Source of the DNA: Mobula hypostoma
Taxonomy: Eukaryota
Direction of reading: 5' to 3'
Length of the DNA: 64,000 nt
Assembly (NCBI RefSeq): GCF_963921235.1
Contig: NC_086108.1
Span: forward strand, 83,082,001 to 83,146,000
In this document: piece by piece, positions 1,430-62,769 of the stretch
Layout: each line of letters begins with the position of its first letter
Position numbering within the stretch: the stretch's first letter is position 1
Notes under the pieces: generated by a model
Databases searched by the model: none
Seen by the model: only the letters and a program-made list of their open reading frames with translations
Told to the model about the DNA's origin: nothing
Made by a program: the position numbers and the translations under genes

Positions 1430-2734
1430 CTGATGGTGGTTGGCAAGAAACCAAAATTTATTTCAATGTGCTTTCTTCTACCTCTCACTTCAACCTCACA
1501 TCCCCTCAATTCCATCAGAGATTTTATTAGTTGTCAAAATTCAACCTACATTTTATCATTTTAAGTCAAATATGGATAAAGAAATACATTGTAAGGGATT
1601 TCATTTTTACTGCTGTCAGTTCTAGCAGACTAAATTGTTATCCTTTCATAGATTCTACCCAATTTCCAATTCATTAACTTCACACTAAGTTGCGAAGATT
1701 GAAATCTAGTCTTTCAAGCTGCCTCTCTATCTGTGCAGGTGTCTTACTCTGTCTGAATCACTTTTCCTTCTCAAAGAGGTGTTAAGTTAGTACCTTTGTC
1801 AATTAGCATAAGCAGATGGGAATCACTCCCTAAGGAAACAGTAGTTCTCCCACACCTGCCTGTAACCAAGAACCATTTGCAACAGGTCTTTGAAACAGGA
1901 TACTAAACAATAACCTGCCCAACTTCCTTAGCAGACATGGATGTTTCTTCTAATTCTTTCATCCTTTTCCCAAGTATTAATATAATCATTCACATAACAT
2001 TTCAAGGTTGTCAGCTATACACAGAGATTTTGGAAAGGTTATCATTTTACTAACATGCAAAAATGGCGATGCATAATAATTGTGAGTTGATGTGAGCCCA
2101 TATGTTATGCTTACGGGCCTATGAATTGTTGGAGCAACTAAGCTACTTGAGGTGACATGATGTACGTTGGTCTCTGGCTCCCAGTCTGGCAATGGTTGGG
2201 ATCGTGACAAGGATTTAGAAATGCCATTGTTCTGGAGGAGGCAGTCGGTGCCGTTGCATGACTTCACTGCCACTGAGGCTATGGATCAGCATTCTTGCTA
2301 ATTCCTACACCTACCGAGGTGAATAAGCATTTGGATACTTACATCTGAAGCTCCTGGTTGACTCAGTCTATCAGCCTCTCCAAAACTGAGAACATAGGAG
2401 CACACATATTTTCAGGAAAATCCCTGAGAATTTATACTGCTGCCTTTACCTAATCCTGCTAGAATTGGAAGCATACATTATTGTTGGTAATAGAGTGCCA
2501 ATGCCTCTCGCTGAAAGTCCACATCCTGGTCCTGGACTCCTCCATACTCTTCAAGACATAGTTATTAGCATGCCGTTCAATAAATTCAGCAATTGCAGTT
2601 GTAAAGAAAATATTTTCCTTTGAAGGACTGGAGACCCTATATATTTTTAAAATTAAAGCTCTGGTCATAAGAGCTTGAAGACAAGGTTATATGTCACCTG
2701 ATGAAACACCCTACTTCCTGCTTCCAGGGTAGAA

Positions 2735-3485
2735 AATAGAAATAAACTGCAGAATTTGAAAGTCTGAAATTAAAGCAGAAAACCAGGGGCCTAAACGGTC
2801 CTTTCAGATGAATCAGTGATACATTTGCACTTCTTACAATCTAATGTACTGCATTTGGTATTCACAACGTAGTCTCTGCTACACTGGAGAAGCCAAATAT
2901 AGACTGGGGTGGTCATATTGAGGACAATGGAACAGTGACTCTGACCTTCCAGTTACGTATCACTTGAATTCAACATCACACATCCACTCTGTGGACTCCT
3001 GCACTGTTATAATGAGGCCCAATCCAACCTTGAGGAATAACACCTTACTTTCAGTATGGGCACACTGCTGCTTGGGCTGAATATCAAATTCTCCAGCTTT
3101 GCACTTATTATTTGTGTCTGTATTGGATCTGGTCATTTGTACCCCTGCCATCATTTTGCCCCTGTTTTTTCTCCTTCAATTTGTATGGTCCGGGCTGCTG
3201 GATATGTAACAGGGCCTCACCATTTACTGCATATTCCACAGACCAAGTAGATTATAGTCCTGGTAAATGCACCTTTAATGCATTTGGACTTACCTTCTCA
3301 GAGATGTTCTTTTGCTCTGCCCATCCCTTGCCCATCTTCTCTTCTCAGTAAACTGTTTTTCTCTCTTTCCCAGTTCTGACAATGGGTCCTTGGAGTGAAC
3401 CATTAACTCTGTTTTTCTTTCCACAGATGCTGCCTGACTTCCTGAGAGTTATTTTTTCAGTATTTTCTTTTCAAATACTGCATTC
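2735..3485 (+). mobile_element. Decayed PLE 3' fragment (GIY-YIG relic, degenerate HHR ~3371-3410), preceded by a short inverted tail copy (~2735-2785)
   Basis: 2786 onward reads GPKRSFQM..YICTSYNLMYCIWYSQRSLCYTGEAKYRLG, homologous to GPKQSFQV..VIYCVRCSRCGLLYIGETRRRLG. Confidence 0.7.
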
Positions 3486-4029
3486 CCTGTCTGATCCCAG
3501 TGATCTCTTTCTTCAATGTAATGCGATGGATTCCTTTTTATTTTTTAGTCTTCCTTCAACCTTTCTTCACATTGTTAGCGGGGTATATATTGTGCCATAA
3601 AAGCTGTGAAATGTGTCCTTGGAACCTGCAGGGTCAGCATTGTTAGTGGAATCCACAAACATAAAGAGAGGTTAGTTTGTCACAGGAAATGACAATTTCT
3701 AACTTGTTCCCTTTACACACTTCAAATCATTGTCATTTATAATGTACTGCCAGGAGGCCTTATAAATTGTGACTTACTTTGAGATGCGTGACTTACACTG
3801 AGTTAGTCCTAGATGTTTTGATTTCCCATTTGGTTGTAATCATGTTCCTTTTTGTATAGAAATTGTGTATAATTTGCGTTTTCCTTGTGAATGATGTTTA
3901 TATGATGCTGTGCAGCTGTGATGCTGCTACATGTAAGGTTTTCATTCCACGAAGTGCATAAATGCACTTGTATTTAGTGCAATAAACCTAAGTTTGATTT
4001 TGAAGATGATTTTGGAAATACCACTGCCA

Positions 4030-4655
4030 TTAAATGAAGATGGCGATGCTACGCAACGCAGCGCGCGCAGCTCTCCGGTGAAATGATATCATATTTGTAA
4101 GTAGGATGCCGTGCACAATTCTGATTTGATGGAGACAGACATGAGAAGCACAGAGGAACATCTGGAGAAACTTCTGAAATGCCCGGCTCGCTGCCGCTGC
4201 TACTGTGCGATCAAGAATCTCCGGAGGGAAGGCCCCAAAATCCTCGGCTTTGCCTGCTGCTGGCAGCCGAGGCTGGGGTCGAAGTGTTCGGCAGAAATGG
4301 TGCTGGGTACTCGGTATCGGAGGCTCAAAGTTTTCGGATGACTCAGAGTCGGACTGTGGTCGGGCATAGCAGGGAGAGTTTTCTTCCTTCTCCCGTCTGC
4401 GTGAGATGTAGGACTTTTGAGAGACTTTGAACTTTTTTACTGCGCCCATGGCCTGTTCTTCATCAAGTTATGGTATTGTTGCACTGTTGTAACTACATGT
4501 TATAATTATGTGGTTTTTGTTAGTTTTTCAGTCTTGGTCTGTCCTGTGTTTCTGTGATATCACACCGGAGGAATATTGTATCATTTCTTAATGCATGCAT
4601 TACTAAATGACAATAAAAGAGGACTGCGTGTCCTCATAATCTAATCTATTCTAAT
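4030..4655 (+). repeat. Unclassified CpG-rich interspersed repeat, probably a young non-autonomous retroelement
   Basis: Starts AAGATGGCG; CpG-rich body in an AT-rich background; AATAAA then a (TCTAA)n-like tail. Confidence 0.45.
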
Positions 4656-6204
4656 TTTCTGTTCTCATTGTTACCTTTCCTAATCCTCAATAACAAAGAG
4701 GAAAATATTTCACAATAGCATCCACTCTTTATAATGTTACTTTATCTGTCTCCTCCATCCTTAACATGTAATTTTCCTATTCACATCCGATAGGATCTCC
4801 CCAAGATAGTGCATGGCAAATAATTATTTCGCAACACACGCTCTTCCTTGCAACAAGGTCATCATAGACACCCATAATGTTCAGACCTGAGTCAGCAATC
4901 TCATTCTTCTAAGAGCAGATTAAAAGATTCACAATATCGAGGGCTGAAGGGCCTGTACTGTGGTGCAACATTTGGAGATCTACGTTCTAACATTGATCTA
5001 GGTTTCAGATGGTAATATTATATCAATTAAATCTCCAATTCTCTAAATTGTGTTGCCCTCAGATTTGAAATGCCCTTTGGGTGCAAGGTTGTAAAATACA
5101 AACTAGTGTGTTTAAAAACTGAGCACCTTGTGGGGGGAGCTGGAAAATTGTTGAAGAGGGCCCTTTCCTAAGATGTTCCTCTGCTGGATGTGACAGGATT
5201 TATTCCCCCAGTGGGCTGGCATCGAAACAGAAGTTATTAGTAAGCTAGTGACATTTAAAAAGGCTTTGCTTTTCTGCAAAGGTTCCCAGATACAGGTAAC
5301 GTATGTCACTTTCAACAGTAGATTTTTATAGTGGAGAATTTCATTCTGCATCGTCTCAGAGAAAGGAGAATCAAGCCTGGTGGAAAGAGTCATCATGAGA
5401 TTTGTGACCAGGAATGCAATTTCCTAACTAACTAGTAAGACCCCCAGAGTAATGAGGTTTCTATATCTAAGCCAGTATACTAAAAACATGATGGCTGTTT
5501 TACTGAGCGCTGCATTGAGTTCCAGTTCTTGCAGATACAGAGTAGATTATGCCTCCAAACCTGATTACTAGCTTTGGAGGACAGAGTTATGAGTGACAGT
5601 TTGAAAAACCTAAATATTTCCAATATAAAATAAATTTAAGGAGATGGGATATTGTAAAAGGTACCGTGGAGTAGAAAGATTCTTTGTCTAGCATAAGTTC
5701 AGTTATATCTGCAAATGGGAGGCCTCAAACATTAAGGTGGTGGAAATCATAAATTGGGAATATTACAAAAGGAGTCTACTTGGCCGATGGTAGTCGTGTC
5801 ATCTCAGAAGTATTTTTAAGTGACATTCTTAAACTCCTTCTTCGTAGCTCTGCAAAAGCCTCCAAAATGGTTTACTGTTCTCTGCCTTTGATTGCTGCTC
5901 TTCCCAAATACATTACCTCATCTTTTGCCTACCTGACCAGCCCATCAACAACCTAAATCCATCATCCCCTTTATTACCACTGCCAATTTTTGTATCACTT
6001 AAAGACAACTTGAACATGGTCCCTACATTGCAGTACTAATCATAGGTATAATGCCTCATAATCTCCCATTGTCTTGTTGATTGGTAGTAGGATTATTTAG
6101 ATTACATCTATTTCTATTTTTTATATTTCTCTTATTCCCAGCCATGCAGGTAACCTTCTGAGAGAGCAATCTCCTTCTTTGACAAGGCTCTGTGAGATTC
6201 CTGC

Positions 6205-6600
6205 AATTTAGCAGTCTCGGTAGTCTCCTTGGTATGAACATAGAATTCTCCAACTTCCGGTAATTCCCTCCCCCTCCCTTCTTCTATCCCTATTTCACTC
6301 TAACCCTCCCCCAGCTCCCTCATGGTTCCGTCTCCTTCTCCTTCTACTACCCATTGTTTTCAGGGCTATGATGTCAATGCCTCCCCTCCCCCACCCCTTT
6401 GTCTTTCAAATTACTGCTCTTTCAACTGAAGCTACAAGCATTCTTCAAATCCTTCCCCATCTTTCATTCTTCAGTCCTGACAAAGTGTTCTGGCCCGAAA
6501 CGTCGACTCATCATTTCTAACTGATGCTGCCCGACCTGCTGAGTTCATCCAGCATACTGAAAGTGTTGCTTTGATCACAATATCTGCATATTTTTTTGTG
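6205..6600 (+). mobile_element. PLE 3' fragment with HHR-like motif at 6472-6508 (core CTGACAA, mutated)
   Basis: GMNIEFSNFR-stop end, pyrimidine-rich UTR, 'cagtcctgacaaagtgttctggcccgaaacgtcgact'. Confidence 0.75.
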
Positions 6601-6904
6601 TCTGTGAGATTTCTGTACCCAGGGACAGCACTTAAAGAATCAAGTAAGCTGACCATCCAGTTCCTTCATTGACATAACTCTTTAGATTCTTCATGGGTGT
6701 GACATGGCAGTGCTATGTCCTCCATGTGTCTACATCTTTCAGGATAGGTTTATCTGTGCTGGCGTTTGATGTGATTGTTGAGAATGACACAGAGTGTGAC
6801 AAGGTACAGATTTGTCCAGTGGTTCTGGCAAATGACAAACAGAAGACAAGATCTATGACAATTCCACGTCTAAGAAACCATTTGAAAGAATAATAAGGTC
6901 ATCA

Positions 6905-7130
6905 GACATAGGAGCAGAATTAGGCCATTCAGCCCACCAAGTCCACTCTGCCACTCCATCATGGATGATCCCAGATCCCACTCAACCCCATACACCTGCT
7001 TTCTCGCCATATCCTTTGATGCCCTGACCGATCAGGAAACGATCAACTTCCACCTTAAATATACCCACAGACTTGGCCTCCACTGCAGTCTGTGGCAGAG
7101 CATTCCACAGACTTACTACTCTCTGGCTAA
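6905..7130 (-). mobile_element. CR1 LINE 3' fragment
   Basis: Reverse complement of the CR1 3' end seen at 11490-11720. Confidence 0.75.
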
Positions 7131-7599
7131 ATGTGACTAAATATATAATTGTCCAGAAGAGTGTGTGGGTGTGGATGTTTTATCTGTGTAAGTCTGCTGT
7201 ATGTCTACAGGTATGTGTGAGACAGCAAGAGAAATAAGAAGTAACTCTCTTACACTGTCTTCACTCATACAGCTGCCTACATTTTGTATAAGTCTTTATG
7301 TTGCCAAAAGCTCTAGATTGTGTTGCACATTTTAGTTTCTTTCCTTTGGCCTTGTAATTATTCTGAGAACTTCTTAAAGATATATGGGGAATCAATGCCA
7401 TCTGCAGTCCATATAGTGTGTGGGTGGTGGAAAAGCAAGGATTCCTGAGCTTGATAGCAGCAACTGGTATGTATACGTATTTTAACTCACTGGAATAACA
7501 GTAAATTACTTCTAAGTTGCAGCCATGCCACAGTACAAACTCACTTCATAAGACTCTCCATCTCATGTTCTCGATATTTAAGGTGAAAGAAGGAAAAGG

Positions 7600-8020
7600 G
7601 GATGGGAATCATGAAGGGGGGGCATTAACAGAAGTTCACCCTCCACCCCCCTCTCTTTCACTGTTTCCCATCACCTTTTCTCTCCCACCTTATCTCCTTG
7701 CCCGCCCATTACCTCCCTCTGGTGCTCCTCCCCCCTTTTCTTTCTTCCATGGCCTTCTGTCTCCTTCACCAATCAGCTTCCCAGCTCTTTTCGTCATCCA
7801 TCCCCCTTCAGGTTTCACCTATCACCTGGTGTTTCTCTATCCTAACCCCCCACCTTTTAAATCTATTCCTCAGCTTTTTTTTTGCCAGTCCTGCCAAAGG
7901 GTTTTGGCCCAAAATGTTGACTGTGCTCTTTTCCTATCGATGCTGCCTGGTCTGCTGAGTTCCTCCAGCATTTTTGCATGCGTTGTTCAGATGTCCAGTA
8001 CCTGCAAATTTTCTTCTGTT
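7600..8020 (+). mobile_element. PLE 3' UTR fragment with degenerate HHR (7886-7923); short inverted piece at ~7600-7636
   Basis: 'cagtcctgccaaagggttttggcccaaaatgttgactg...gatgctgcctggtctgctgagttcctccagc'. Confidence 0.7.
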
Positions 8021-8721
8021 TGTCCATAGGATAAAAATTGAGACCGTGGATTAGTAGAGAGAAGTGTGGGATTGTGTGCATTTTCCATCTGTGTGGGATC
8101 ACAACTCTGACCACATTTGGAATGTTCACCCTACAGATACTTTGGATCAGATATTTTAGATTTCTCTTATCACTGGTAGATGCATGAAAATAGGAAAAGT
8201 TTTATAAAAGTAAATACATTTTCCTATTCACTGTAAATAACCCTCGCTCTGTTTTAGAATTTATGTCAGTTGTCAGACATTCCCTCAGGCAGCCTGCTGT
8301 GCATATGTGAGTTTCTCCCAGTTTGCTGATGACTGCTTATCATAAACTTTAGGCAGGAAAACCACTGCAAGCAAAAATCAGCATTTTCCTATGTTGTGGG
8401 ATTTCTAACAAATAGAGTCCAAATGGTTTTCCCTTCTTTCCAAAATAAGACAATGTCTTGGGTTTGGGTGTGACAAATCTGCAGATAATTACTGCATCTT
8501 GCTATCCTTTTATAGAAAACACTCAATTTTTCTGCAATTGGACAATATATTTCCAATGCTTCAAGCCACTGGATGAATTTCAACCAATATAAATCGAATA
8601 GTACCTACAGTGTTGCAAATACAATCAAATATTGATACTTGAATAAATATTGGTTTAATTTAGTTTAATATCCTTCCTGCACTGCTATATTACAAATATT
8701 TTAATCAGCATTAAACATCAA

Positions 8722-11700
8722 CTTAATAAAATATTTAATGATATGATATTGAAGGGAGCAATCACTCTATTGGGAGTATTCTATAGACACTCAACAGCAA
8801 CAGAGACACCGAGGAGCAGATCAGGAGGCTCATTTTGGAAAAGTGCAAAAATAGCAGGATTGTTGACATGGGTGAATTCATCTTCCCTAATATTGATTAG
8901 TACCTCCTTAGTGCAAAATTTTCAGATAAGGCAGAATTTGTTAGGTGTTTTAGAAAAGATTCCTGACACAAACTGTCAATGGACCAACTAGAAGAGAAGG
9001 CAATACTGGATCTTGTATCAGGTGATGAATCTGATCAGGTGACAGATCTCTCAGTGCATGAGTATTTCTTAGACAGTGTCCCCAATTCCCTGACCTTTAA
9101 CATAGCCTTGGACAGGGATAGCAGTAGATGGTATGGACAAGTATTTATTCAAGGAAGGCCAATTTAGGATATTATTAGGCAGGAACTTGGGAGCATACAA
9201 TGGGAACAGATGTACTCATAGAAATGCACAATGCAAATACAGAGGTTGTTTTGGGAGTACTTTCATGAGGTTCTGGATACATTTATCCCACCGAGGGAAA
9301 GAATGGTAGGGGGAAGGAAGCATGGTTGGCAAGAGAAGTAGAACAGTCAAGAGTAAGAAGGAAGCATATTTAAGGTTTAGGACAGGGCTCTTGTAAGTTA
9401 TAAGGTAGCCAGGAAAGAGCTTAAGAATGGACTTAGGAGACCCAGAATGGGACATGAGAAAGCCTTGGCTATTAGAATTAAGGAAACCCTAAGGCATTCA
9501 ACATGTATATGAAAAACAGAGGGATGACTAAAGTGAAGATAGGACCAATTAGGGATAAAAGAGGAAATATATGCCTGGAGTTGGAGGCAGTAGGGAAGGT
9601 CCTTAATGAATACTTTGCTTCAATATTCAGCAGTGAGTGGGACCTTGACAAACGTGAGGTCAGCATAGAAAAGGCTAATATGCTGAAAGATGTCAAGGTT
9701 AATAAAGAGAATAGGTCTCCGGGGCCAGATATAATAGTACACCAAGCTACTACAGGAAGCAAATAAAGATACTGTGGTACATTCAGTGATGATATTTTGT
9801 ATATTCACTAGCCACAGGAGTAGTACCAAAAGACTGAAGGGTGGAAAATGTTATTCCTTTGCTCAAGAAAGAAAAATGGAATAACTTTGGGAGTTATAGA
9901 CCAGTGAGTCTTGTAACAATGGTGGGCAAAACATTTGCAGTGGATTCTTCTAGACAGGATTTATGAGCATTGGAGAAGCATAACCTGCATAGCTTTGTGA
10001 GAGGCGGGCTATACTTAGTGAACCTGATTAACTCTCTTTAAGGAAGCAATAAAATAAATTGAAGAAGATAGACCAGCGGATGTGGATTTCAGTAAGGCGC
10101 GCACCACCGTTTACCATTCAGAAAATCAGAAATCAGGAAGCATGGGATCTAGGGAAACTTAGCTTCATAGACTTATAATTGGCTTGCCCGCTGAAGGCAG
10201 AGGGTGGTAGTACATAAAGCATTTTCTGCCTGGATGTTGGTGATCAGTGATGTTCTGGTGGGTTAATAAGTTTGCAGATGACACAAAGGATGGTGGTGTT
10301 GTGGATTGTACAGAACATTGTCGTAGGTTATGATGGAGCATTGATAGGATGCAAAGCTTGGTTGAGAAGTGACAGATGGAGTTCAATCTAGAAAAGTGTG
10401 AAATAATACACTTCAGAAGGTTGAGCTTGAAGGCAGAGTCCAAGGTTAATGGCTGAATTCCTAGCAGTGTGGAGGAACTGAGGGATCTTGGGGTCCACGT
10501 CCACAAATCCTTCAAAGTTGCATGCAAGTCGATAGGGTGGCTAAAATATGTATGATGTGTCGTCGTCTTTTGCTTGTCAAGGGATGGAGTTCAAGAGCCT
10601 TGAGGTAATGTTGTAGCTCTATAAAACTCTGGTTAGATCACACTTGGAGTAGTGTGTTCATTTCTCGTTGCTTCATTATAGGAAGGTTGTAGAAGCTTTA
10701 GAGAGGTTGCCGTGGAAATTTTCCAGGATGCTGCCTGGGTTAGAGAGCATGTCTTACGAGAAAAGGTTGAGTGAGCTAAGGAATTTCTTTTTGGAGCAAA
10801 GGACGATGAGCGATGACTTGATAGAGGTGTATTAGATGATAAAAGACGTTGATAGAGTGGACACCAGTGCCTTTTTCTCAAGGCAGTAATAGCCAGTATG
10901 AGACAGTATTATTTTAAGGTGATTGGAGGAAAGAAGTCAGAGCTAGGTTTTTTCACAGAGAGTGGTGCACACTGCCTGGGGTGGTGGTAGATACAGTAGG
11001 GACACTTAAAACACTCTTATAAGCACATGGATGAAAGAAAAGTGGAGGGCTATGTGGGTGGGAAGCATTGGATTGATCTTGAAGTAGGTTAAGGAACTGG
11101 AACAATATTATGGGCCAAAAGGGGAATAGAATATAATGCTGAGCCTTTATAAGACACTAGTCAGGCCGCACTTGGAGTACGGTTAACAATTTTGGGCCCA
11201 TATCTCAGAAAGGATGTTGTCATTAGAGAGAGTCCTGAGAAGCTTCACATGGATGATTTTGGGAATGAAGGGGTTAATGTATGAGGAACGTTTGGCAGCT
11301 TTGGGCCTGTACTCACTGGAATTTGGAAGCATGTGTGGGGATCTCATTGAAAACTACTGAATGTTGAAAGACTAGATTGGGTGGATGTGAAGAGGATGTT
11401 TCCTGTGGTGGGGTATCCAGAATTAGAAGGCACAGCCTCAAAATTGAGGGGTGACCCTTTAGAACAGAGGTAAAGAGGAATTCTTTCAGCCAGAGAGTAG
11501 TAAATCTATGGAATGCTCTGCCACAGACTGCGGCGAAGGCAAAGTCTGTGCACATATTTAAGGCGGAAGCTGATTGTTTCCTGATCAATCAGGGCATCGA
11601 AGGATATGGTGAGAAGGCAGGTGTGGGGCGTTGAGCAGGATCTGGGATCAGCCATGATGGAATGGCGGAGCAGACTCGAAGGGCTGAATGGCCTAATTCT

Positions 11701-14189: not shown

Positions 14190-14483
14190 ATAGAGGGATA
14201 TAATTATGACCACATTTGAGAAAGGAGATAAATCTAACTGCAATCAGCTACAGAGGGTCTTCATGCTATCTGTTGCGAGATACCTCACCCAATGGCTAGA
14301 GAGCTGTTCCCAAATCACTGTGTGTTTTGAAGCACAATAGGCAAAAAATACTGAGGTCAATGCTTCCATGAGAAATGCTGGAAACATAAACAACCACTAC
14401 AGATGTGATATTTTCCAACTTTATTCAAGCCATTAGTTCCTTCATATGGGATGGACAATTGGAAAGCACTTTCATTAAATTTA
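14190..14483 (+). mobile_element. Old RTE RT fragment, left half (split by the PLE)
   Basis: KGDKSNC..YRG-like motif at ~14220-14260; continues after 19245. Confidence 0.5.
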
Positions 14484-14585
14484 AACGCAAACAACAGGAA
14501 TTCTGCAGATGCTGGAAATTCAAGCAACACACATCAAAGTTGCTGGTGAACGCAGCAGGCCAAGCAGCATCTATAGGAAGAGGCG

Positions 14586-14623
14586 CAGTCGACGTTTCAG
14601 GCCGAGACCCTTCGTCAGGACTA
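14586..14623 (-). ncRNA. Minimal type I hammerhead ribozyme (left arm)
   Basis: Exact reverse complement of 19133-19170. Confidence 0.85.
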
Positions 14624-14914
14624 ACTGAAGGAAGAGTGAGTAAGGGATTTGAAAGCTGGAGGGGGAGGGGGAGATGCAAAATGATAGGAGAAGACGGGAG
14701 GGGGAGGGATAGAGCCGAGAGCTGGACAGGTGATAGGCAAAAGGGGATACGAGAGGATCATGGGACAGGAGGTCCGGGAAGAAAGACGGGGGGGGTGACC
14801 CAGAGGATGGGCAAGAGGTATATTCAGAGGGACAGAGGGAGAAAAAGGAGAGTGAGAGAAAGAATGTGTGCATAAAAATGAGTAACAGATGGGGTACGAG
14901 GGGGGAGGTGGGGC

Positions 14915-15787
14915 CTAGCGGAAGTTAGAGAAGTCAATGTTCATGCCATCAGGTTGGAGGCTACCCAGACGGAATATAAGGTGTTGTTCCTCCAACCTGA
15001 GTGTGGCTTCATCTTTACAGTAGAGGAGGCCGTGGATAGACATGTCAGAATGGGAATGGGACGTGGAATTAAAATGTGTGGCCACTGGGAGATCCTGCTT
15101 TCTCTGGCGGACAGAGCGTAGATGTTCAGCAAAGCGGTCTCCCAGTCTGCGTCGGGTCTCACCAATATATAAAAGGCCACATCGGGAGCACCGGACGCAG
15201 TATATCACCCCAGTCGACTCACAGGTGAAGTGATGCCTCACCTGGAAGGACTGTTTGGGGCCCTGAATGGTGGTGAGGGAGGAAGTGTAAGGGCATGTGT
15301 AGCACTTGTTCCGCTTACACGGATAAGTGCCAGGAGGGAGATCAGTGGGGAGGGATGGGGGGGACGAATGGACAAGGGAGTTGTGTAGGGAGCGATCCCT
15401 GCGGAATGCAGAGGGGGGGGAGGGAAAGATGTGCTTAGTGGTGGGATCCCGTTGGAGGTGGCGGAAGTTACGGAGAATAATATGTTGGACCCGGAGGCTG
15501 GTGGGGTGGTAGGTGAGGACCAGGGGAACCCTATTCCTAGTGGGGTGGTGGGTGGATGGAGTGAGAGCAGATGTACGTGAAATGGGGGAGATGCGTTTAA
15601 GAGCAGAGTTGATAGTGGAGGAAGGGAAGCCCCTTTCTTTAAAAAATGAAGACATCTCCCTCGTCCTAGAATGAAAAGCCTCATCCTGAGAGCAGATGCG
15701 GCGGAGACGGAGGAATTGCGAGAAGGGAATGGCGTTTTTGCAAGAGACAGGGTGAGAAGAGGAATAGTCCAGATAGCTGTGAGAGTC
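14915..15787 (-). pseudogene. 5'-truncated inverted copy of the PLE ORF C-terminus (thumb, Cys linker, GIY-YIG)
   Basis: 246-aa ORF 14915-15655 is identical to the C-terminus of the long ORF except one Q>R change. Confidence 0.9.
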
Positions 15788-15795
15788 TTCCGGTG

Positions 15796-18700
15796 ATGCC
15801 TACACCGAAGAAGTTTAGATCCTCTCTTCGACGGGAGTTCAGTGAAACCATCTCTCACTGCTCCCCATCTGTAATTTCTTCGGCTCTTCAACTTTTCGAC
15901 CACACTTTGACTCAGACTCGCTATCACAGCCATATATCCTTTCTTGGAACGTGCCTCCGTCGCCAACTTACTCCAGTTGGCTTTAGGATTCGTTTCCAAG
16001 CCTCTCAATTTGGACCTTCTGAGGATCCCAGGTACTCACATTTTATTGACTCTGCCTCTCGCCGCTTCTCCCGTCAAGCTCTGAAGGCGACGCTCTCCGC
16101 CATGAGGAGGTACTTGGTGTCCCTATCCCAGACCCTTCCACACCTTCGGGACACTTTCTTCGCCGTCTGTATTGGTCCTACCCGTTATTTCATCCTCCGT
16201 CGGATCCACGCCTGCAATCGCCGTTTTTTTGACTTTGTCATGTTAGGTAAAGATCGTAAGATCTTACATCTACGGACTCCAGAGCCTGCCGGCCCCGACG
16301 CTAGCAGGCATGAACTTTCAATTGCGGCTCCTGCCATTGATCTCGGCGGCTCCAACACCTCAGGACATATTCAAAACCCGGACTCCAGCAACGACCATGG
16401 ACACATTCGAAGTGATTACGCAACCACCAACTGCAACTCCAGCCTTGAACTCCAGGCCGGGTCTTTATGTGCTGCTGTTGTGACTCCCGTCTCCCCTTCC
16501 CCAACCACCACTCCGCAGCCCCGTCTTCCTCAGATCCCACCGTCAGCTCCTGGGCCCTCAGAGGCTCCATCTTCCTCTCACCCCAACCCTCCCCTCTCCA
16601 CTGACACCCCCAGCCTCCCCCCTCCCCCCTCTGATCCCAGCTCTCATCCGTGCCGGGTCTTTACCATCCCCTCCGACCTTCAACTGTCGGAGGCAGAACG
16701 CTCTGTTCTCAGTAAGGGCCTCACGTTTGTTCCCCTTCGCCCACACCTCAGCGAGTTCCGTGTTCGCCACGATGCGGAACTTTTCTTCCGCCGTCTCCGT
16801 CTCCGAGCCTACTTCTTCGGCAAGGACTCTTCCACCCCCACCGATGACCCCTTCTCCCGTCTTCAACCGTCCTCTTCTTCATGGACACCCCGCTCTGGTC
16901 TTCTGCCTGCTCTGGATCTCTTTATCGCTAACTGCCGACGGGACATCAACCGTCTCGACTTCACCGCACCTTGTCCCCATTCCAACCTCACTCCTTCGGA
17001 ACGCTCTGCTCTCCAATCCCTCCGCACTAATCCTAACATTATTATTAAACCCGCTGATAAAGGAGGTGCTGTTGTAGTCTGGCGTACTGACCTCTACCTT
17101 GCCGAGGCACAGCGACAACTCGCGGATACCTCCTCTTATTTACCCCTCGATCGTGACCCCACTAAGGAGCACCAGGCCATTGTCTCCCACACTATCAACG
17201 ACTTTATCCGCTCAGGGGATCTCCCATCCACTGCTACCAACCTTATAGTTCCCACACCCCGCACTTCCCGTTTCTACCTCCTACCCAAGATCCACAAACC
17301 TGCCTGTCCTGGCCGACCTATTGTCTCAGCTTGCTCCTGCCCCACCGAACTCGTTTCTGCATACCTCGACACTGTTTTATCACCCCTTGTTCAATCCCTT
17401 CCGACCTATGTTCGTGACACTTCTCACGCTCTTAAACTTTTCGATGATTTTAAGTTCCCTGGCCCCCACCGCTTTATTTTCACCATGGATGTCCAGTCCT
17501 TATATACTTCCATCCCCCATCAGGAAGGTCTCAAAGCTCTACGCTTCTTTTTGGATTCCAGACCTAATCAGTTCCCCTCTACCACCACTCTGCTCCGTCT
17601 AGCGCAATTAGTCCTTACTCTTAATAATTTCTCCTTTTGCTCCTCCCATTTCCTCCAAACTAAAGGTGTAGCTATGGGCACCCGTATGCGTCCTAGCTAT
17701 GCCTGCCTTTTTGTTGGGTTTGTGGAACAATCTATGTTCCGTGCCTATTCTGGTATCTGTCCCCCACTTTTCCTTCGCTACATCGACGACTGCATTGGCG
17801 CTGCTTCCTGCACACATGCAGAACTCATTGACTTTATTAACTTTGCCTCCAACTTTCACCCTGCCCTCAAGTTTACATGGTCCATTTCCGACACCTCCCT
17901 CCCCTTTCTAGATCTTTCTGTCTCTGTCTCTGGAGACAGCTTATCCACTGATGTCTACTATAAGCCTACTGACTCTCACAGCTATCTGGACTATTCCTCT
18001 TCTCACCCTGTCTCTTGCAAAAACGCCATTCCCTTCTCGCAATTCCTCCGTCTCCGCCGCATCTGCTCTCAGGATGATGCTTTTCATTCTAGGACGAGGG
18101 AGATGTCTTCATTTTTTAAAGAAAGGGGCTTCCCTTCCTCCACTATCAACTCTGCTCTTAAACGCATCTCCCCCATTTCACGTACATCTGCTCTCACTCC
18201 ATCCACCCACCACCCCACTAGGAATAGGGTTCCCCTGGTCCTCACCTACCACCCCACCAGCCTCCGGGTCCAACATATTATTCTCCGTAACTTCCGCCAC
18301 CTCCAACGGGATCCCACCACTAAGCACATCTTTCCCTCCCCCCCCTCTGCATTCCGCAGGGATCGCTCCCTACACAACTCCCTTGTCCATTCGTCCCCCC
18401 CATCCCTCCCCACTGATCTCCCTCCTGGCACTTATCCGTGTAAGCAGAACAAGTGCTACACATGCCCTTACACTTCCTCCCTCACCACCATTCAGGGCCC
18501 CAAACAGTCCTTCCAGGTGAGGCATCACTTCACCTGTGAGTCGACTGGGGTGATATACTGCGTCCGGTGCTCCCGATGTGGCCTTTTATATATTGGTGAG
18601 ACCCGACGCAGACTGGGAGACCGCTTTGCTGAACATCTACGCTCTGTCCGCCAGAGAAAGCAGGATCTCCCAGTGGCCACACATTTTAATTCCACGTCCC

Positions 18701-18843
18701 ATTCCCATTCTGACATGTCTATCCACGGCCTCCTCTACTGTAAAGATGAAGCCACACTCAGGTTGGAGGAACAACACCTTATATTCCGTCTGGGTAGCCT
18801 CCAACCAGATGGCATGAACATTGACTTCTCTAACTTCCGCTAG
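15796..18843 (+). CDS. PLE polyprotein: N-terminal domain, reverse transcriptase, Cys-rich linker, GIY-YIG endonuclease
   Basis: Open ~1015 aa from ATG 15796; motifs IKPADKGGAVVV, FYLLPKIHK, GRPIVS, DVQSLYTSI, GVAMGT, RYIDD, YYKPTD, CKQNKCYTC, VIYCVRCSRCGLLYIGET, RFAEH, GMN. Confidence 0.93.
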   Translation: MPTPKKFRSSLRREFSETISHCSPSVISSALQLFDHTLTQTRYHSHISFLGTCLRRQLTPVGFRIRFQASQFGPSEDPRYSHFIDSASRRFSRQALKATLSAMRRYLVSLSQTLPHLRDTFFAVCIGPTRYFILRRIHACNRRFFDFVMLGKDRKILHLRTPEPAGPDASRHELSIAAPAIDLGGSNTSGHIQNPDSSNDHGHIRSDYATTNCNSSLELQAGSLCAAVVTPVSPSPTTTPQPRLPQIPPSAPGPSEAPSSSHPNPPLSTDTPSLPPPPSDPSSHPCRVFTIPSDLQLSEAERSVLSKGLTFVPLRPHLSEFRVRHDAELFFRRLRLRAYFFGKDSSTPTDDPFSRLQPSSSSWTPRSGLLPALDLFIANCRRDINRLDFTAPCPHSNLTPSERSALQSLRTNPNIIIKPADKGGAVVVWRTDLYLAEAQRQLADTSSYLPLDRDPTKEHQAIVSHTINDFIRSGDLPSTATNLIVPTPRTSRFYLLPKIHKPACPGRPIVSACSCPTELVSAYLDTVLSPLVQSLPTYVRDTSHALKLFDDFKFPGPHRFIFTMDVQSLYTSIPHQEGLKALRFFLDSRPNQFPSTTTLLRLAQLVLTLNNFSFCSSHFLQTKGVAMGTRMRPSYACLFVGFVEQSMFRAYSGICPPLFLRYIDDCIGAASCTHAELIDFINFASNFHPALKFTWSISDTSLPFLDLSVSVSGDSLSTDVYYKPTDSHSYLDYSSSHPVSCKNAIPFSQFLRLRRICSQDDAFHSRTREMSSFFKERGFPSSTINSALKRISPISRTSALTPSTHHPTRNRVPLVLTYHPTSLRVQHIILRNFRHLQRDPTTKHIFPSPPSAFRRDRSLHNSLVHSSPPSLPTDLPPGTYPCKQNKCYTCPYTSSLTTIQGPKQSFQVRHHFTCESTGVIYCVRCSRCGLLYIGETRRRLGDRFAEHLRSVRQRKQDLPVATHFNSTSHSHSDMSIHGLLYCKDEATLRLEEQHLIFRLGSLQPDGMNIDFSNFR

Positions 18844-19132
18844 GCCCCACCTCCCCCTCGTACCCCATCTGTTACTCATTTTTATGCACACATTCTTTCT
18901 CTCACTCTCCTTTTTCTCCCTCTGTCCCTCTGAATATACCTCTTGCCCATCCTTTGGGTCACCCCCCCGTCTTTCTTCCCGGACCTCCTGTCCCATGATC
19001 CTCTCGTATCCCCTTTTGCCTATCACCTGTCCAGCTCTCGGCTCTATCCCTCCCCCTCCTGTCTTCTCCTATCATTTTGCATCTCCCCGTCCCCCTCCAG
19101 CTTTCAACTCCCTTACTCACTCTTCCTTCAGT

Positions 19133-19170
19133 TAGTCCTGACGAAGGGTCTCGGCCTGAAACGTCGACTG
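19133..19170 (+). ncRNA. Minimal type I hammerhead ribozyme (right arm, 3' UTR)
   Basis: Stem I UAGUC/GACUG; core CUGACGA plus one A; stem II GGGU/GCCU with CUCG loop; GAAA; palindromic ACGU in place of stem III; predicted cleavage after GUC at 19165. Confidence 0.85.
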
Positions 19171-19245
19171 CGCCTCTTCCTATAGATGCTGCTTGGCCTG
19201 CTGCGTTCACCAGCAACTTTGATGTGTGTTGTTTCATTAAATTTA

Positions 19246-22924: not shown

Positions 22925-23106
22925 CAGTTTCTTCAGATGCTGGAAATCTTGTGCAACATGCACAAAATGCTGGAGGAACTCGGGAGTCAGGCAGCATCCA
23001 TGGAGGGAATAAACAGTCATTGTTTTGGGCCAAGATCCTTCATCGGGATTCCGCGCCCTCCCCCCCGCCGCCCATGGATGCTGCCTGATTTCCAGAGTTC
23101 CTCCAG
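22925..23106 (-). mobile_element. Short PLE tail with degenerate HHR (23014-23050) and a short inverted arm (~23072-23106)
   Basis: 'ctggaggaactcgggagtcaggcagcatccatgg' versus 'ccatggatgctgcctgatttccagagttcctccag'. Confidence 0.7.
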
Positions 23107-32010: not shown

Positions 32011-34836
32011 AAACCCATTTAACAGAAACAGAACATCAGAAACTAAAGAGAGATTGGGTGGGTAGTGTTGTTGCAGCTTCATTTAATTCAAAAGCGAGGA
32101 GAGTAGCAATTTTGATTAATAAAACGTTACCAATTAGAATACAAATGTAATAACTGATTCTGCAGGGAGATATGTGATTATACGCTGTCAACTTTTTTCT
32201 GAATTATGGATTCTCATGAATATTTATGCACCAAATGAAAATGATGCAAAATTCATACAAGAAGCTTTTTTGAATTTGGCTGATGTACATGAAAAAATAT
32301 TAATAGGATGAGATTTTAATTTTTGCCTAGACCCATTCTTAGATAGATCAACTAAGGCTGTCACAAAATCGAAGGTAGTAAAACTAACTTTATCATTGAT
32401 GAAAGATTTAAATTTGATTGATATATGGAGAGAATTAATCCCAAAGAAAGAGACAATCCGTTCTATTCTAATAGACACAAAACTTACTCAAGGATAGATT
32501 TTTTCCTATTATCAATGAATATTCAACACAGAATGAAAAATATGGAATATAAGGCAAGAATATTGTCAGATCATTCTCCTTTATTAATGACAATAATAAT
32601 GATTGATAAGGAAGAAGTGACTTATTCAATATTATTAAAACGTCAAGATTTTTGTGATTTTATGAAAAAACAGATCCAATTTTTTTTGGATACAAACTCT
32701 CATTCAGTGGATGATAAATTTATACTATGGGATGTGATGAAAGCATATTTGAGGGGTCAGATAATAAGTTATATGACTAAAATTAAGAAAGAATAAATGG
32801 CAGAACTAGATCAATTGGAAAAAGAAATTACAAAATTAGAAAAAGAATCTCAAAGACATATGACAGAAGAAAAACAAAGGCAACTTGTCAATAAGAAGTT
32901 ACAATATAATACGCTTCAGACGTATAGAATGGAAAAAGCAATCATGAGAACTAAGCAAAGGTATTATGAGTTAGGTGAGGAAGCACACAAAATTCTTGCC
33001 TGGCAGTTGTAAACAGAACAAGCTTCCAAAACGATAAATGCAATTAGAACAAGTGCAAATAAAATTACTTATAAACCTTTAGAAATTAATGAAACCTTCA
33101 AAAGTTTCTATTCTAAATTTTATAAATCAGAATCACAAAATGATGTTAATGAGATAGAAAGGTTTTTATCACAAGTAACTCTTCCAAAATTGAATTTGGA
33201 AGAACAAAAGGGATTAGATATGCCTTTTGCATTAAAAAAGGTTGAAGAAGCTTTAGGATCACTCCAAAGTAATAAATCTCCAGGATAGGATGGTTTTCCA
33301 CCTGAATTTTATAAAAAGTTAAAAATTTATTATTTCCTCCTTTTATGGAGTTAATACGCCAAGCGGAAAAAGTACATAAACTCCCAGAATCTTTTTCAAC
33401 AGCGATTGTAATAGTATTGCCAAAGAAAGATAGGGATCCTTTAAAACCAGCATCATATAGGCCTATTTCTTTGTTGAACACGGATTGTAAAATAATAGCA
33501 AAAATTTTATCGAATAGATTATCTAAATATTTACCATAATTAATACATATGGATCAAATAGGATTTATTAAAAATAGACAATTGGCAGATAATGTAACTC
33601 GGCTACTCAGTATAATTCATTTGGCACAAAAAAGGGAGGAGATGAGTATAGTAATAGCCTTGGATGCAGAAAAAGCATTTGATAGATTGGAATGGGATTT
33701 TTTATTTAAAGTATTCGAAAAATATGGGTTAGGAATACCTTTCATAAACTGGATTAAAACTTTAAATACTAACCCTAGTGCTAAAGTAGTGACAAATGGT
33801 CAAATTTCAACACCATTCCAGTTAAAAAGGTCAACTAGACAAGGTTGTCCATTATCACCTGCTTTATTTGTACTGGCGATAGAGCCATTAGCAGAACTAA
33901 TTAGAATTGATCCAGATTTTAGAGTTAATCAGGAGGAATATAAAATTAACCTATCTGCTGATGATGTTTTGATTTACTTAACAAACCCACAGCATTCGTT
34001 ACATAAATTATCTTCTAGACTGGATGAATATGGGAAAGTATCAGGGTGTAAAATAAATTGGGATAAAAGTGAAATTTTACCTCTTACTAAAGGAGACTAT
34101 AGCCAATGTCGATTAGCAACCCAATTTAGATGGCCGGTAAATGGTATAAAGTATTTAGGTATAAGACTTGATAATGATGTAAAGAATTTATATAAATTTA
34201 ATTATTTACCACTATTGAAAAAAATTCAAGAAGATCTTGACAAATGGATGATACTACCAATAACATTAGTGGGTAGAGTCAATGTTGTAAAAATGAATAT
34301 ATTTCCTAGATTACAGTTTTTGTTTCAAACATTACCAATACAATTGCCACAGAAATTTTTTCAAGAGTTAAATAAATGTGTGGGAACATTTCTTTGGAAA
34401 GGTAAGATGTCAAGAATATCATTAGAAAAATTGACATGGAAATTTGAGTTAGGAGGGTTACAGCTTCCAAACTTTAAGAATTATTATAAAGCAAATCAAC
34501 TTAGATTTATTGCATCTTTCTTCGATGATCGAAAACCAGCATGGATTAAAATAGAATTAGATAAGATAGGAGAAAATACACCCAAAGATTTTATATATAA
34601 ATGGGAACCTAAATGGATATGGGAAAAGAAAGAATCTCCTATATTAAAACATTTGATTGATCTATGGAATAAGATAAACGTTGATAATGAAATAAATCTT
34701 TATTAGCAAGGAGACCTTTGTTCCAAAACAGACTTATTCCTTTTACAATAGATAATCAACTTTTATATAATTGGTACCAAAAAGGGATTAGAACTATAGG
34801 ACGCAGCAGGCCAGGCAGCATCTCTAGGAAGAGGTA

Positions 34837-34874
34837 CAGTCGACATTTCAGGCCGAGACCCTTCGTCAGGACTA
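34837..34874 (-). ncRNA. Minimal HHR (GAAAUGUC variant)
   Basis: Minus strand reads tagtcCTGACGAagggtctcggcctGAAAtgtcgactg. Confidence 0.75.
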
Positions 34875-34881
34875 ACCTGAC

Positions 34882-34919
34882 TAGTCCTGACGAAGGGTCT
34901 CGGCCTGAAACATCGACTG
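34882..34919 (+). ncRNA. Minimal HHR (GAAACAUC variant)
   Basis: tagtcCTGACGAagggtctcggcctGAAAcatcgactg. Confidence 0.75.
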
Positions 34920-36139
34920 TACCTCTTCCTAGAGATGCTGCCTGGCCTGCTGCGTTCACCAGCAACTTTGATGTGTGTTGCTTGAATTCCCAGCATCTTC
35001 AGAATTCCTGTTGTTTTAGATCTATAGGAGACTGTTATGAACGAGGTGTATTGATGTCATTTGAACAACTAAAGAATAAATATAAAATATCAAATAACAC
35101 TTTCTTTTGTTACCTTCAATTAAGGGCTTACTTAAAAGGCAAACTGGGTCAAACAATGTTTTTGCCAAAACCCAATGAAATTGAAATTTTAATTCAAAAA
35201 GGAAAAATTTAAAAATTTATTTCTTGTATGTATAATTTGATTCAAAAACAGGCAATTAAACAAGGAATCCACAAGTCAAAACAAAAATGGGAAATGGATC
35301 TGAATATTAATATTGATGAAACAAATTGGTCAAGACTGTGTCTTGACAGTATGACAAATACAATAAACGTTCGACTTAGTACAATATAATTTTTTTACAC
35401 CAATTATATATTACATCGCAAAAAATAAATAGATTAAATTCAAACTTATCTGATCAATGTTTTTGGTGTAATCAAGAAATTGGTACTTTCTTACATTCTA
35501 CTTGGTCTTGTTCTAAAATTCAACCTTTTTGGATAAATTGAAGTCTTATTGGAACAAATTACTGGAACTCAACTTCCACATAACCCTGTATTATTTCTAT
35601 TAGGTGATATTGAAGGGATAAAACTGAAACTAAAACTGAATAAATATCATAAAGGATTCATAAAAATTGCATTGGCAGTAGCCAAGAAGGCTATAGCAGT
35701 TACTTGGAAATTGGATTCATATTTAAGTATGAATCGTTGGAACAATGAAATGTTTAGTTGTATTCCACTCAAAAAAATTACTTATAATTTAAGAGCTAAA
35801 TATGATACATTTTTGAATATTTGGCACCCTTATTTACAAAAGATAGGATGGCATATTTAGTTGCTCCAATGATAAAGATATTGGTCCCTTGGGGAAAGTA
35901 ATAAATAAATATACTAAATTTATTTTGAATCCCATGGAGCATGTGGAAACCTTCCAATATCCAGGCAGTTCTTCTTTCTTTTTCTTTTTTTCCCTTTTTT
36001 TCAGCTAGGGGTATATATCGGGGGGGGAAGGGTTAAGGGGAGGGGGGAGTGTAGACATTATCTTTCTATGTAATCTCTTCAAAAACTCAATAAAAATTAT
36101 ATTAAAAAAAAGAAAAGCAATCAGGGAGATTGGGCATTG

Positions 36140-36245
36140 AAAGTGCAACACACACAAAATGCTGGAGGAACTCAATAGATCAGGGAGTATCCATGGAGGG
36201 AAATAAACAGTCGGCATTTCAGGTTGAGACCCTTCATCAGGATGA
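36140..36245 (-). mobile_element. PLE tail fragment with HHR-like motif (36208-36243)
   Basis: Minus strand reads cctgatgaagggtctcaacctgaaatgccgactg. Confidence 0.7.
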
Positions 36246-36506: not shown

Positions 36507-38125
36507 CAAGTTTCCCCTGCTATCCAAAGGTCGAGCGTTCCTATGAAACGGTTCGTAAGCTGGAATGTCGTAAAGCGAAGAAGCAATTACTATTTATTTA
36601 TATGGGAAAATTTTGTGAGCGTTCGCAGACTCAAAAATAACCTACCAAATCATGCCAAATAACACATAAAACCTAAAATGACAGTAACATATAGTAAAAG
36701 CAGGAATGATATGATAAATACACAACCTATATAAAGTAGAAATACTTTTCCACAACCATTGCCTGCACTGTTGTCCGTAGTGAAAATCTCACGCAAGTGC
36801 TCTCGGCAGAAACACGGCGCACGCGCTGAAAATCTCACGCAAGCGCTGTTGGCAAAAACACTCTCTCCAGTAACCTTTAAGCTATGAAGCTGCCAAATCA
36901 TACCAAATAACACGTAAAAATACACAGCCTATATAAAGTGGAAATAATGTATGTACAGTGTAGTATCACTTACCGGAATCGGGAAGACAGCTTGCCGAGC
37001 ACACTGATGATGGTGTGTTAGACTGAGTCGTCGGAGTTTGGGTGATGCAGTTGCCCCCACCCTCCAGGGAGCGAACCAATACCGATCTGCAAAGTACGCA
37101 GGGGTACAGCGGTAGCCAGGAGGCACTCAGCACATTTTTAAGAAAAAAGCCAAAATAAACATGCTAATTAATTAGGTGCCTCCCGGCACGTAATTGTCGG
37201 CCCAGATCAGAGGCGATTGCTGATTGCATCTCCTCTGATCTGGGCCGACAATTATGTGTCGGGCAGCACCTAATTAATTAGCATGTTTATTTCGGCTTTT
37301 TTCTTAAAGGTGTGCTGTGTGCCTCCTGGCTACCGCTGCATTCTCCACGAATCGGTATCTGTCCGCGGCCTGGGGGTTGGGGTGGTGGGACACTGGGGTG
37401 TCATCTCGTCGTCGTCTGTTTCCATTAGGGCAGGCAGCTCATCTTCTCCTATGACTGCCTGCCTCGATGTCGAAGGTCAAGGTTCATCATCTGCTGTGGC
37501 TGATCTGGAAGGCTTGCTTGACTGCTGAGCCTCGTGCATTTTTCTATCATACAGTTCTTTGTAAGCACTCAAACCATCCTGCAAATATCCCCTAAACCAA
37601 CGTACCCTTTCAAAATTAAAGTTGTTCTTTATCATTACTCATTCGGTTTCGATTGTTATCCTTTCCTCTTCCAATTGCATCAGCTCTTCATCTATCAGTT
37701 CTTGGTCATGGGATGCCAAAACCTCTTCAACATCATCTTCGTCAGCTTCCACAAGCCAAACTCACTTTGTCCTTACTTCGTTCACCACAATCAAAACGCT
37801 TAATTGTGTCTAGTTTTACGCCAAGTGTAACACCATTACAAGTTCTTTTAGGCTTTTCCGATACCTTAGAACTCACAGCTGCTCACAGGCACGTGTTTAG
37901 GCAATTCCGGCGAGAATGCCGTTCCGAATCTGGGGGAGAGCAGCTGCTCGGGGCACGAACTGCCTTTTATCGTGCGCTGATTTTTTTGTGCGCTGATTTT
38001 TTTCCGCGCGCTGCTTTTTTTGTAACGGTGAAACACCTTCTGTTAGCGAAAACAAGGAACGAATGTAGGTCTTTCGTAACAGTGAGGTTTCGTAAAGCGA
38101 ACGTTCGAAAAGCGGGGGACACCTG
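36507..38125 (-). mobile_element. Internally deleted Tigger/pogo-like DNA transposon
   Basis: TA on both flanks; imperfect TIRs CAAGTTTCCCCTGCT and AGCGGGGGACACCTG; minus-strand KPKRTCNGVTLGVKLDTIKRFDCGE (CENP-B-like HTH) adjacent to the acidic segment EDDVEEVLASHDQELIDEEL. Confidence 0.8.
37055..37385. repeat. Large internal palindrome in the Tigger-like element
   Basis: ~37108-37217 pairs with ~37228-37338; weaker pairing further out. Confidence 0.85.
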
Positions 38126-44979: not shown

Positions 44980-45095
44980 GAAACACACACAAAATGCTGG
45001 AGGAACTCAACAGCTCACGCAGCGTCTATGAAAATGAATAAACGGTCGATGTTTCAGTCCAAGACCCTTCATCAGGACTAGAAAGCAAGAGGAAG
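44980..45095 (-). mobile_element. PLE tail fragment with HHR (45043-45080)
   Basis: Minus strand reads tagtcCTGATGAagggtcttggactGAAAcatcgaccg. Confidence 0.7.
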
Positions 45096-55129: not shown

Positions 55130-55265
55130 ATCTTCTTCATTCTGCCTTCTTCCTCCTTGCTTTCCAGTCCTGATGAAGGGTCTCAGCCCAGAATGTTGAC
55201 TGTTAATTCCCATCCATAGATGCTGCCTGAGCTGCTGTGTTCATCCAGCATTTTGTTTATGTTGC
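55130..55265 (+). mobile_element. PLE tail fragment with degenerate HHR (55165-55202)
   Basis: cagtcCTGATGAagggtctcagcccagaatgttgactg (GAAA lost). Confidence 0.7.
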
Positions 55266-55395
55266 TTCTCTATTTGTATTGAGTCACAATACAGAACCAG
55301 ATAAGCAGTCTGGAAGGGGAAGCTCAATGGACAAGTGACACTGATACATTAAACATTATTATTTGGCTTCATTAAAATACTAATCTTTTGATTAC

Positions 55396-61819: not shown

Positions 61820-62615
61820 CAACACAAAATAATCTGCAGATGCTGGGGTCAAAGCAACACTCACAACACGCTGGAGGAACTCAGCAGGTCGGGCAGCATC
61901 CGTGGAAAAGATTGGTCGATGTTTCGGGCCAGAACCCTTTGTCAGGACTGAAGAGGGAAGGGGCAGAGGCTCTATAAAGAAGGTGGGGGGAGGGTGGGAA
62001 GGAGAAGGCTGGTAGGTTCCAGGTGAAAAAACAGTGAGGGGAAAGATAAAGGGGTGGGGGAGGGGAAGCAGGGAGATGATAGGCAGGAAAGGTGAAGAAG
62101 GAATAGGGGAAAACACAATGGGTAGTAGAAGGAGGTGGAACCAAGAGGGAGGTGATAGGCAGCTGGGGGAGGGGGCAGAGTGACATAGGGATAGGGGAAG
62201 GGAGGGGGAGGGAATTACCAGAAGTTGGAGAATTCTATGTTCATACCAAGGGGCTGGAGACTACCTAGACGGTATATGAGGTGTTGCTCCTCCAACCTGA
62301 GTTTAGCCTCATCATGGCAGTAGAGGAGGCCATGTATGGACATATCTGAATGGGAGTGGGAAGCAGAATTGAAGTGGGTGGCTACTGGGAGATCCTGTCT
62401 ATTTTGACGGACGGAGTGGAGGTGCTCGACGACGCGGTCCCCCAACCTGTGTCGGGTTTCACCGATGTAGAGGAGGCCGCACCGGGAGCACTGGATGCAA
62501 TAGATGACCCCAACAGACTCAGAAGTGAAGTGTTGCCTCGCTTTGAAGTACTGATTGGGGCCCTGAATGGTGGCAAGAGAGGAGGTGTAGGGACAGGTAT
62601 AGCACTTGTAGCACA
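61820..62615 (-). mobile_element. PLE 3' fragment (GIY-YIG, UTR, HHR-like motif 61913-61950 with core CTGACAA)
   Basis: 133-aa ORF VIYCIQCSRCGLLYIGET...GMNIEFSNFW. Confidence 0.9.
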
Positions 62616-62769
62616 TCTCTGTAAGATTATAAACTATAGATTTTCATTGATTCTATTGTATTTTTTGTCCTATTGTGAATGTCTGCAAGAAAATAAATCT
62701 TAGTTATGTATATGTTATAGTATATAGTAGCGAATATGTGCTCTGATAATAAAGTTACTGTGAATTTTG

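Follow-up and report, generated by a model that had tools for sequence, protein, structure and literature searches.

A unique palindromic hammerhead insert in Mobula hypostoma, a likely by-product of Neptune-like Penelope integration

In Penelope-like elements (PLEs) that bear an endonuclease, an inverted, 5'-truncated pLTR and a 30-40-bp tail are standard (PMC8557442, PMC3846280, PMC2377424, PMC8969392); the passages on inverted pLTRs in the first three of these papers place the inverted copy next to a full or longer one and give no truncation hotspot, and the passage in PMC8557442 calls the formation of inverted pLTRs undefined. In Schistosoma mansoni, pairs of minimal hammerheads on opposite strands, 100-700 bp apart, have been ascribed to truncated PLEs (PMC4209133), in a one-sentence mention that gives no junctions, duplications, counts or mechanism. 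The section of the same paper on minimal PLE hammerheads indicates that they need a second copy on the same strand. For PAc, a Poseidon element of Anolis, the purified protein cuts and extends both target strands and initiates at two sites bounding the tail; ribozyme cleavage is dispensable in this in vitro reaction, the first 172 nt of the ORF are required, and the inverted products are left unexplained there (PMC11167929). Non-LTR retrozymes, in the part of the preprint describing them, are short, non-coding, PLE-derived sequences with a type I hammerhead, built as head-to-tail tandems whose ribozymes lie on the same strand (bioRxiv 10.64898/2026.07.22.740005).

Here we describe a 214-bp palindromic insert (34802-35015; hereafter the mini) in a stretch of 64,000 nucleotides from Mobula hypostoma contig NC_086108.1, which we call the window. 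A sequence-only reading had proposed two 74-bp inverted arms separated by 7 nt, the right one running ~60 nt further to the family 3' tail, in an insert of ~214 bp with a 14-bp target-site duplication. This layout stands, with the arms corrected to 73 bp each (74 is reached by counting the last base of the left duplication). The arms lie head-to-head and are complementary at 71 of 73 positions. In family coordinates, where zero is the first base of stem I and the predicted ribozyme cut is +32/+33, the tail-less short arm (34802..34874, minus strand) spans 0 to +72 and the tail-bearing arm (34882..35015, plus strand) spans 0 to +133. The latter continues for 61 nt beyond the palindrome, through a PLE tail of about 35 nt (34981..35015, plus strand) found in this arm only. 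The strandless 7-nt filler between the arms (34875..34881) is unique in the genome and resembles a short templated insertion, an origin it may have had.

Each arm begins exactly at stem I, as had been claimed, and contains a minimal type I hammerhead, identified manually using the description in PMC4209133: one on the minus strand (34837..34874, predicted cut 34842/34841) and one on the plus strand (34882..34919, predicted cut 34914/34915). Both retain all of CUGANGA, GAAA and NUH. The earlier wording of a "complete" core on opposite strands is nevertheless true of the core bases only, because the two mismatches between the arms (34845 and 34912), both of CpG type, fall in the ACGU palindrome of helix III, one in each ribozyme. 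An Rfam scan of the window at the gathering threshold returned zero families, hammerheads included.

The two copies of the 14-bp duplication (34788..34801 and 35016..35029, plus strand) are identical at 13 of 14 positions. The mini interrupts a host repeat, an RT-coding LINE-type copy (33540..35212, plus strand; RVT_1 E 3e-26 for 33540-34706), and 81 paralogous copies of this repeat carry the empty site in single copy, all in the right-hand form. The duplication is therefore real, and its left copy has mutated (one T-to-A change).

A long member of the family lies in the same window (14470..19245, plus strand). This 4.7-kb element has a 14-bp duplication as well (14470-14483 / 19232-19245), confirming the agreement in length noted earlier. 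It comprises a 1.3-kb inverted, tail-bearing arm (14484-15787) and an ORF of 1015 aa from its ATG (15796-18843), with outer ends at about +97 for the ORF arm and in the tail, at +140, for the inverted arm. The single ORF combines RT with a C-terminal GIY-YIG domain, through matches that are weak and below the Pfam cut-off (RVT_1 E 1e-3 at 549-711; GIY-YIG E 1e-3 at 960-1034). Its translation also contains the CX2-5CxxC zinc-finger linker before the endonuclease and the CCHH motif, which the relevant passage of PMC8557442 gives as common to Neptune and Nematis. Tandem or inverted pLTRs with a 30-40-bp tail at one end occur in the family, and the pLTR holds a minimal hammerhead (by hand assignment against the motif in PMC4209133, with cleavage predicted). 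From these sequence features the parent family appears to be a Neptune-like Penelope element, the linker motif being one that does not separate Neptune from Nematis. The mini belongs to this family, as the sequence-only reading held, but to a sister subfamily (127/134 identical). Exact genomic matches number 27,586 for a 27-nt tail word, 35,183 for a 31-nt word taken from the mini's subfamily and 635 for the stretch between tail and ORF start; together these counts indicate that the tail adjoins the ATG upstream in tandem copies. Just upstream of stem I in the long member, 19113-19133 contains initiator-like sites as well as sequence of the branch-point, pyrimidine-tract and splice-acceptor type.

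Compared with the described systems, the mini resembles inverted-pLTR PLEs in its head-to-head copy, its tail at one end, the single target duplication round the unit and the heavy 5' truncation, and differs from them in that its two arms reach no further than the ribozyme and no ORF is left. It is best read as the short end of the known spectrum of inverted pLTR plus tail. The Schistosoma pairs likewise consist of two close minimal type I hammerheads on opposite strands. The likeness to PAc lies in two fixed outer ends bounding the tail and in the probable extension of both strands with no need for ribozyme cleavage; PAc, however, belongs to another clade, and its tail lies 111-118 nt inside the ORF, whereas the tail here is upstream of the ATG. 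With retrozymes the mini shares small size, lack of coding sequence, PLE origin and a type I hammerhead, but instead of head-to-tail units, each with a hammerhead on the same strand, it has a head-to-head arrangement with one ribozyme per strand.

Two samples of loci were drawn, both lying within the initial 9.2 Mb of a single contig. The less biased one takes the first 100 exact tail matches (of 27,586), all on contig C1. Here, 52 loci are two-armed, with an inverted partner, and 48 are one-armed, and arm lengths run continuously from tens to over 2,000 bases. Defining minis as copies with both inner ends at -40 or later, we find 32 among the 100 tail-bearing loci, 13 of which have both ribozymes whole; 20 of the 52 two-armed loci are long copies. 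Extrapolation from this one 9.2-Mb region to all exact tail matches gives ~8,800 minis (6,400-11,600), 3,600 of them (2,000-5,800) with two whole ribozymes. The 32 sampled minis show 30 distinct breakpoint pairs, and all but one (31/32) have a 12-19-bp target duplication when one mismatch and microhomology are allowed. The variant set of the window mini recurs in 7/32 minis, 5/29 short solo, 2/23 long solo and 3/16 long two-armed copies (four long two-armed loci being counted as one-armed in this comparison), and the subfamily variants of minis are in general common to one-armed and long copies. The varied breakpoints and the variants held in common with long copies argue that minis are made repeatedly from the family's ordinary templates. 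With both inner ends at 0, the window mini is the modal product of the family. Its short arm has its outer end at +72, some 25 nt before the +96 to +99 usual in the family, and comparably unusual ends, at +53 to +67, were seen in 4 of 46 uncensored cases. We also note that two-armed copies have target duplications within the narrow range of 13-15 bp, and that 10/29 short and 13/23 long one-armed copies have no duplication, some of these being cut off by the ends of the locus.

Inner arm ends show an enrichment of about 8-fold at the 5' edge of the ribozyme. In the 100-locus sample, 52 of 152 inner ends fall at -15..+10, a rate of 0.021 per base at risk against 0.0024 at +11..+90 (p 1e-20) and 0.0028 upstream at -100..-16 (p 2e-14), the paired ends of a locus being interdependent in these figures. 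The second sample, anchored on the mini's subfamily and comprising 79 of 100 listed places after removal of loci already sampled and of second members of close pairs, gives 0.013 against 0.0042 downstream (p 0.005) and 0.0026 upstream (p 1e-5). The same place terminates 16 of the 48 one-armed copies; upstream pLTRs of tandem copies begin at -18..-4 in 7 of the 28 measured, and tandems with internal deletions rejoin there too. The sequence-only reading had offered, as one outcome, a one-off truncation with random breakpoints. The junction is indeed unique and junctions differ elsewhere, but the breakpoints cluster and minis make up about a third of loci.

Several causes of the stop were considered and rejected. 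Cleavage by the ribozyme would place ends at +32/+33, yet ends do not peak there in the 100-locus sample (0.0043 at +28..+44 against 0.021 at -15..+10). Production of minis from short, retrozyme-type templates is contradicted by the tail arms ending at -30..+12, none of which (0/36) runs into ORF-start sequence. A weak, pyrimidine-rich RNA:DNA hybrid fails as well: pyrimidine content is 0.78-0.83 from -280 to -1, yet the stop rate drops back. As to a spliced template, the predicted junction for the most promising upstream donor, the one searched, has zero genomic matches; the bases upstream of stem I do have the look of a splice acceptor preceded by a branch point and a pyrimidine tract, and in Drosophila Penelope the intron likewise ends at helix I according to the passages concerned (PMC4209133, PMC2377424).

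The ends at the hotspot scatter over about 25 nt, and by eye no extra cap-derived base is evident at one-armed ends. The bases at -14 and -3 from stem I are initiator-like, which we take to be a match to the initiator motif. A similar initiator motif is named for a rotifer pLTR in the corresponding passage of PMC3846280. Judging from sequence, a frequent template RNA likely has its 5' end where the inner ends accumulate, for instance one starting at -3/-14, where transcription start is a guess. Such an RNA 5' end is the most economical cause of the stop at stem I; folding of the nascent cDNA into the mirror image of the ribozyme is a possible alternative. The literature consulted, largely the main texts of open-access papers, yielded neither a truncation hotspot at a PLE hammerhead nor replicating palindromic PLE minis. 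The hotspot at the 5' edge and the evidence from the arms against fold-back, given below, go beyond the cited papers.

We conclude that the mini is very probably a single insertion of a Neptune-like Penelope element, unique and truncated in both arms, likely produced by priming on both strands followed by end-to-end joining. The proposal of an extreme double truncation by the integration mechanism of the family is supported by the unique junction and the family-wide spread of breakpoints. The PLE protein would cut the two target strands 14 bases apart, and one DNA copy would start from each nick; both short copies would stop near stem I of the ribozyme and then be joined end to end, presumably by host end joining. 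RNA would have been the template for both arms, and neither arm would have templated the other. Short repeated fillers are found at junctions such as those of L012 and L029. Microhomologies and short templated fillers of this kind resemble polymerase-theta repair. Family-wide, the outer ends lie at two fixed places, ~+97 and +134 to +140, one per arm, and by analogy these may correspond to the two RT start sites that the in vitro experiments of PMC11167929 describe. The element used there is of the Poseidon clade, with ribozyme and tail overlapping the ORF start.

The alternative that survives best, although we regard it as improbable, is fold-back or self-priming, in which one DNA copy turns back and copies itself into the second arm (a related idea appears in a passage of PMC3846280). 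It would readily yield head-to-head palindromes with short loops, and the inner ends are in fact no more than 10 nt apart in 17 of 52 loci. The arms also mostly belong to one subfamily: 21/32 are identical at four sites, against 14% by chance, and 44 of 52 arm pairs compared (39 sampled loci and 13 with the shared junction described below) have at most one shared-site difference. However, in 24 of the 52 two-armed loci the tail-less arm extends 5' beyond the tail arm by more than 10 nt and so contains sequence absent from it, while the tail arm alone has the tail; with each arm holding sequence that the other is missing, neither can be the copy. In addition, the arms differ at at least two shared polymorphic sites in 8 of the 52 pairs (L065 at 5/11 sites, for example), and one-armed copies have the same hotspot. 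Later deletion at the centre of the palindrome could account for the asymmetry of the arms, and gene conversion for their discordance.

A still less probable reading, and one raised before, is that of a replicating MITE-like, ribozyme-only element, in which the whole palindrome would be transcribed and then inserted anew by the PLE protein. MITEs are non-autonomous DNA transposons. The mini is like them in being short, non-coding, strongly palindromic and accompanied by many similar copies. It is unlike them in that its ends are not mutual inverted repeats, the interior differs from copy to copy and its partner is an RT element; where a MITE would have terminal inverted repeats on each side and a short duplication of fixed length, there are asymmetric ends and duplications of 12-19 bp. 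The same architecture does recur at very many loci: searching the genome with the whole insert gave 1,716 candidates, of which 40 were scored and 30 fetched, and all 30 of these best matches are two-armed palindromes. Yet the junction search suggested by the sequence-only reading, run on 3.48 Gb, returned one match, the mini itself, rather than one junction with the same ends at many loci with different duplications. Junctions differ nearly everywhere else, both in the 32 sampled minis and among the 29 best matches that were parsed (27 different, though chosen by likeness to the mini).

One junction, the simplest, with a 2-nt overlap or microhomology at the stem I hotspot, does recur, at 57 loci whose duplications differ; of 19 such loci examined, 16 have one of 11-15 bp. 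The 15 of these 57 that were fetched, however, fall into six variant sets, and their short arms end anywhere between +28 and +116. Roughly half of these fetched loci have one variant set in common, so that some copying of minis is possible. A longer two-armed derivative has, moreover, been duplicated once, junction included. This 620-bp derivative is found at L239 and L241 (contig 1, 36.21 Mb and 37.28 Mb, ~1 Mb apart), its only two copies in the genome, which are 96% identical and have common inversion and deletion junctions with different flanks; an inverted junction can thus occasionally be copied. The mini itself has no ORF-start region and its transcript is a predicted hairpin. For the mini locus, the replicating-element reading is already largely refuted.

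Least probable of all is that a long two-armed copy lost its centre after insertion because hairpins or cruciforms made it unstable. Instability is a general property of long inverted repeats, and long two-armed copies exist (20/52), but palindrome-free one-armed copies end at the same place (16/48), internal-deletion tandems rejoin at the stem I region too, and random deletion would not be expected to produce a peak there.

Returning to the doubly primed, doubly truncated insertion, the predicted fold of its transcript is one long hairpin in which neither ribozyme would be able to form. The hairpin is calculated at -165 and -173 kcal/mol and the ribozyme fold at about -106, so that forcing the latter costs 59 and 67 kcal/mol. 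The transcript has one sense ribozyme, paired with its own antisense. Given this pairing and the mutated helix III palindromes of both ribozymes, "double ribozyme" describes the sequence and not a likely activity. The predicted hairpin and the missing ORF-start region, which the PLE template needs in vitro, suggest by analogy that the mini is likely inert as a mobile element. It is thus likely a by-product with no onward spread, preserving a trace of the way in which these elements insert, rather than a new self-spreading element.

As an element, the mini is ordinary debris, and its interest lies in the mechanistic record rather than in the locus. Tentatively, and at somewhat less than even chances, the ~9,000 minis may be read as a record of PLE integration by symmetric priming on both strands, with two independently templated copies, sometimes of different variants, joined by host repair, and about one third of copies running off the 5' end of the RNA upstream of an uncut hammerhead. 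If so, the inverted pLTR would be explained without self-priming, cleavage by the ribozyme would not be what trims the template, and the commonest by-product would be a 70-100-bp hairpin against the element's own 5' region, which could feed small-RNA silencing. The importance is modest: a young, high-copy family offers thousands of junctions on which double priming and self-priming can be compared, the sharp stop at the 5' edge of the ribozyme adds to the value of the data set, and repeat annotation could file such palindromes as MITEs.

Other derivatives of the same PLE are tandems of the retrozyme type, with units of 262 bp (L261), 310 bp (L260, at G000:C2:157815700-157818700), 419 bp (L232) and 435 bp (L246). 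In these, ribozyme, tail and ORF start are rejoined to the pLTR by internal deletion, with hammerheads on the same strand, and all four fit the definition of non-LTR retrozymes given in the preprint. About 15 of 30 loci with the tail-to-ORF stretch have an internal deletion, many leaving the ORF 115-190 nt past its start, and L247 and L248 have two internal deletions in common. The window also holds eight older remnants of hammerhead arms from related PLE families, 70-82% identical (3372-3444, 6473-6554, 7887-7976, 23005-23049, 36131-36242, 44982-45081, 55166-55267 and 61833-61949), several of which seem to begin at stem I too. An older PLE fragment at 62199-62643 is 77-78% identical to the 3' end of the ORF of the 4.7-kb element, and an unrelated palindrome at 37107-37338, with 111-nt arms, 92% complementary, and a 10-nt spacer, is possibly a MITE or a hairpin-type repeat.
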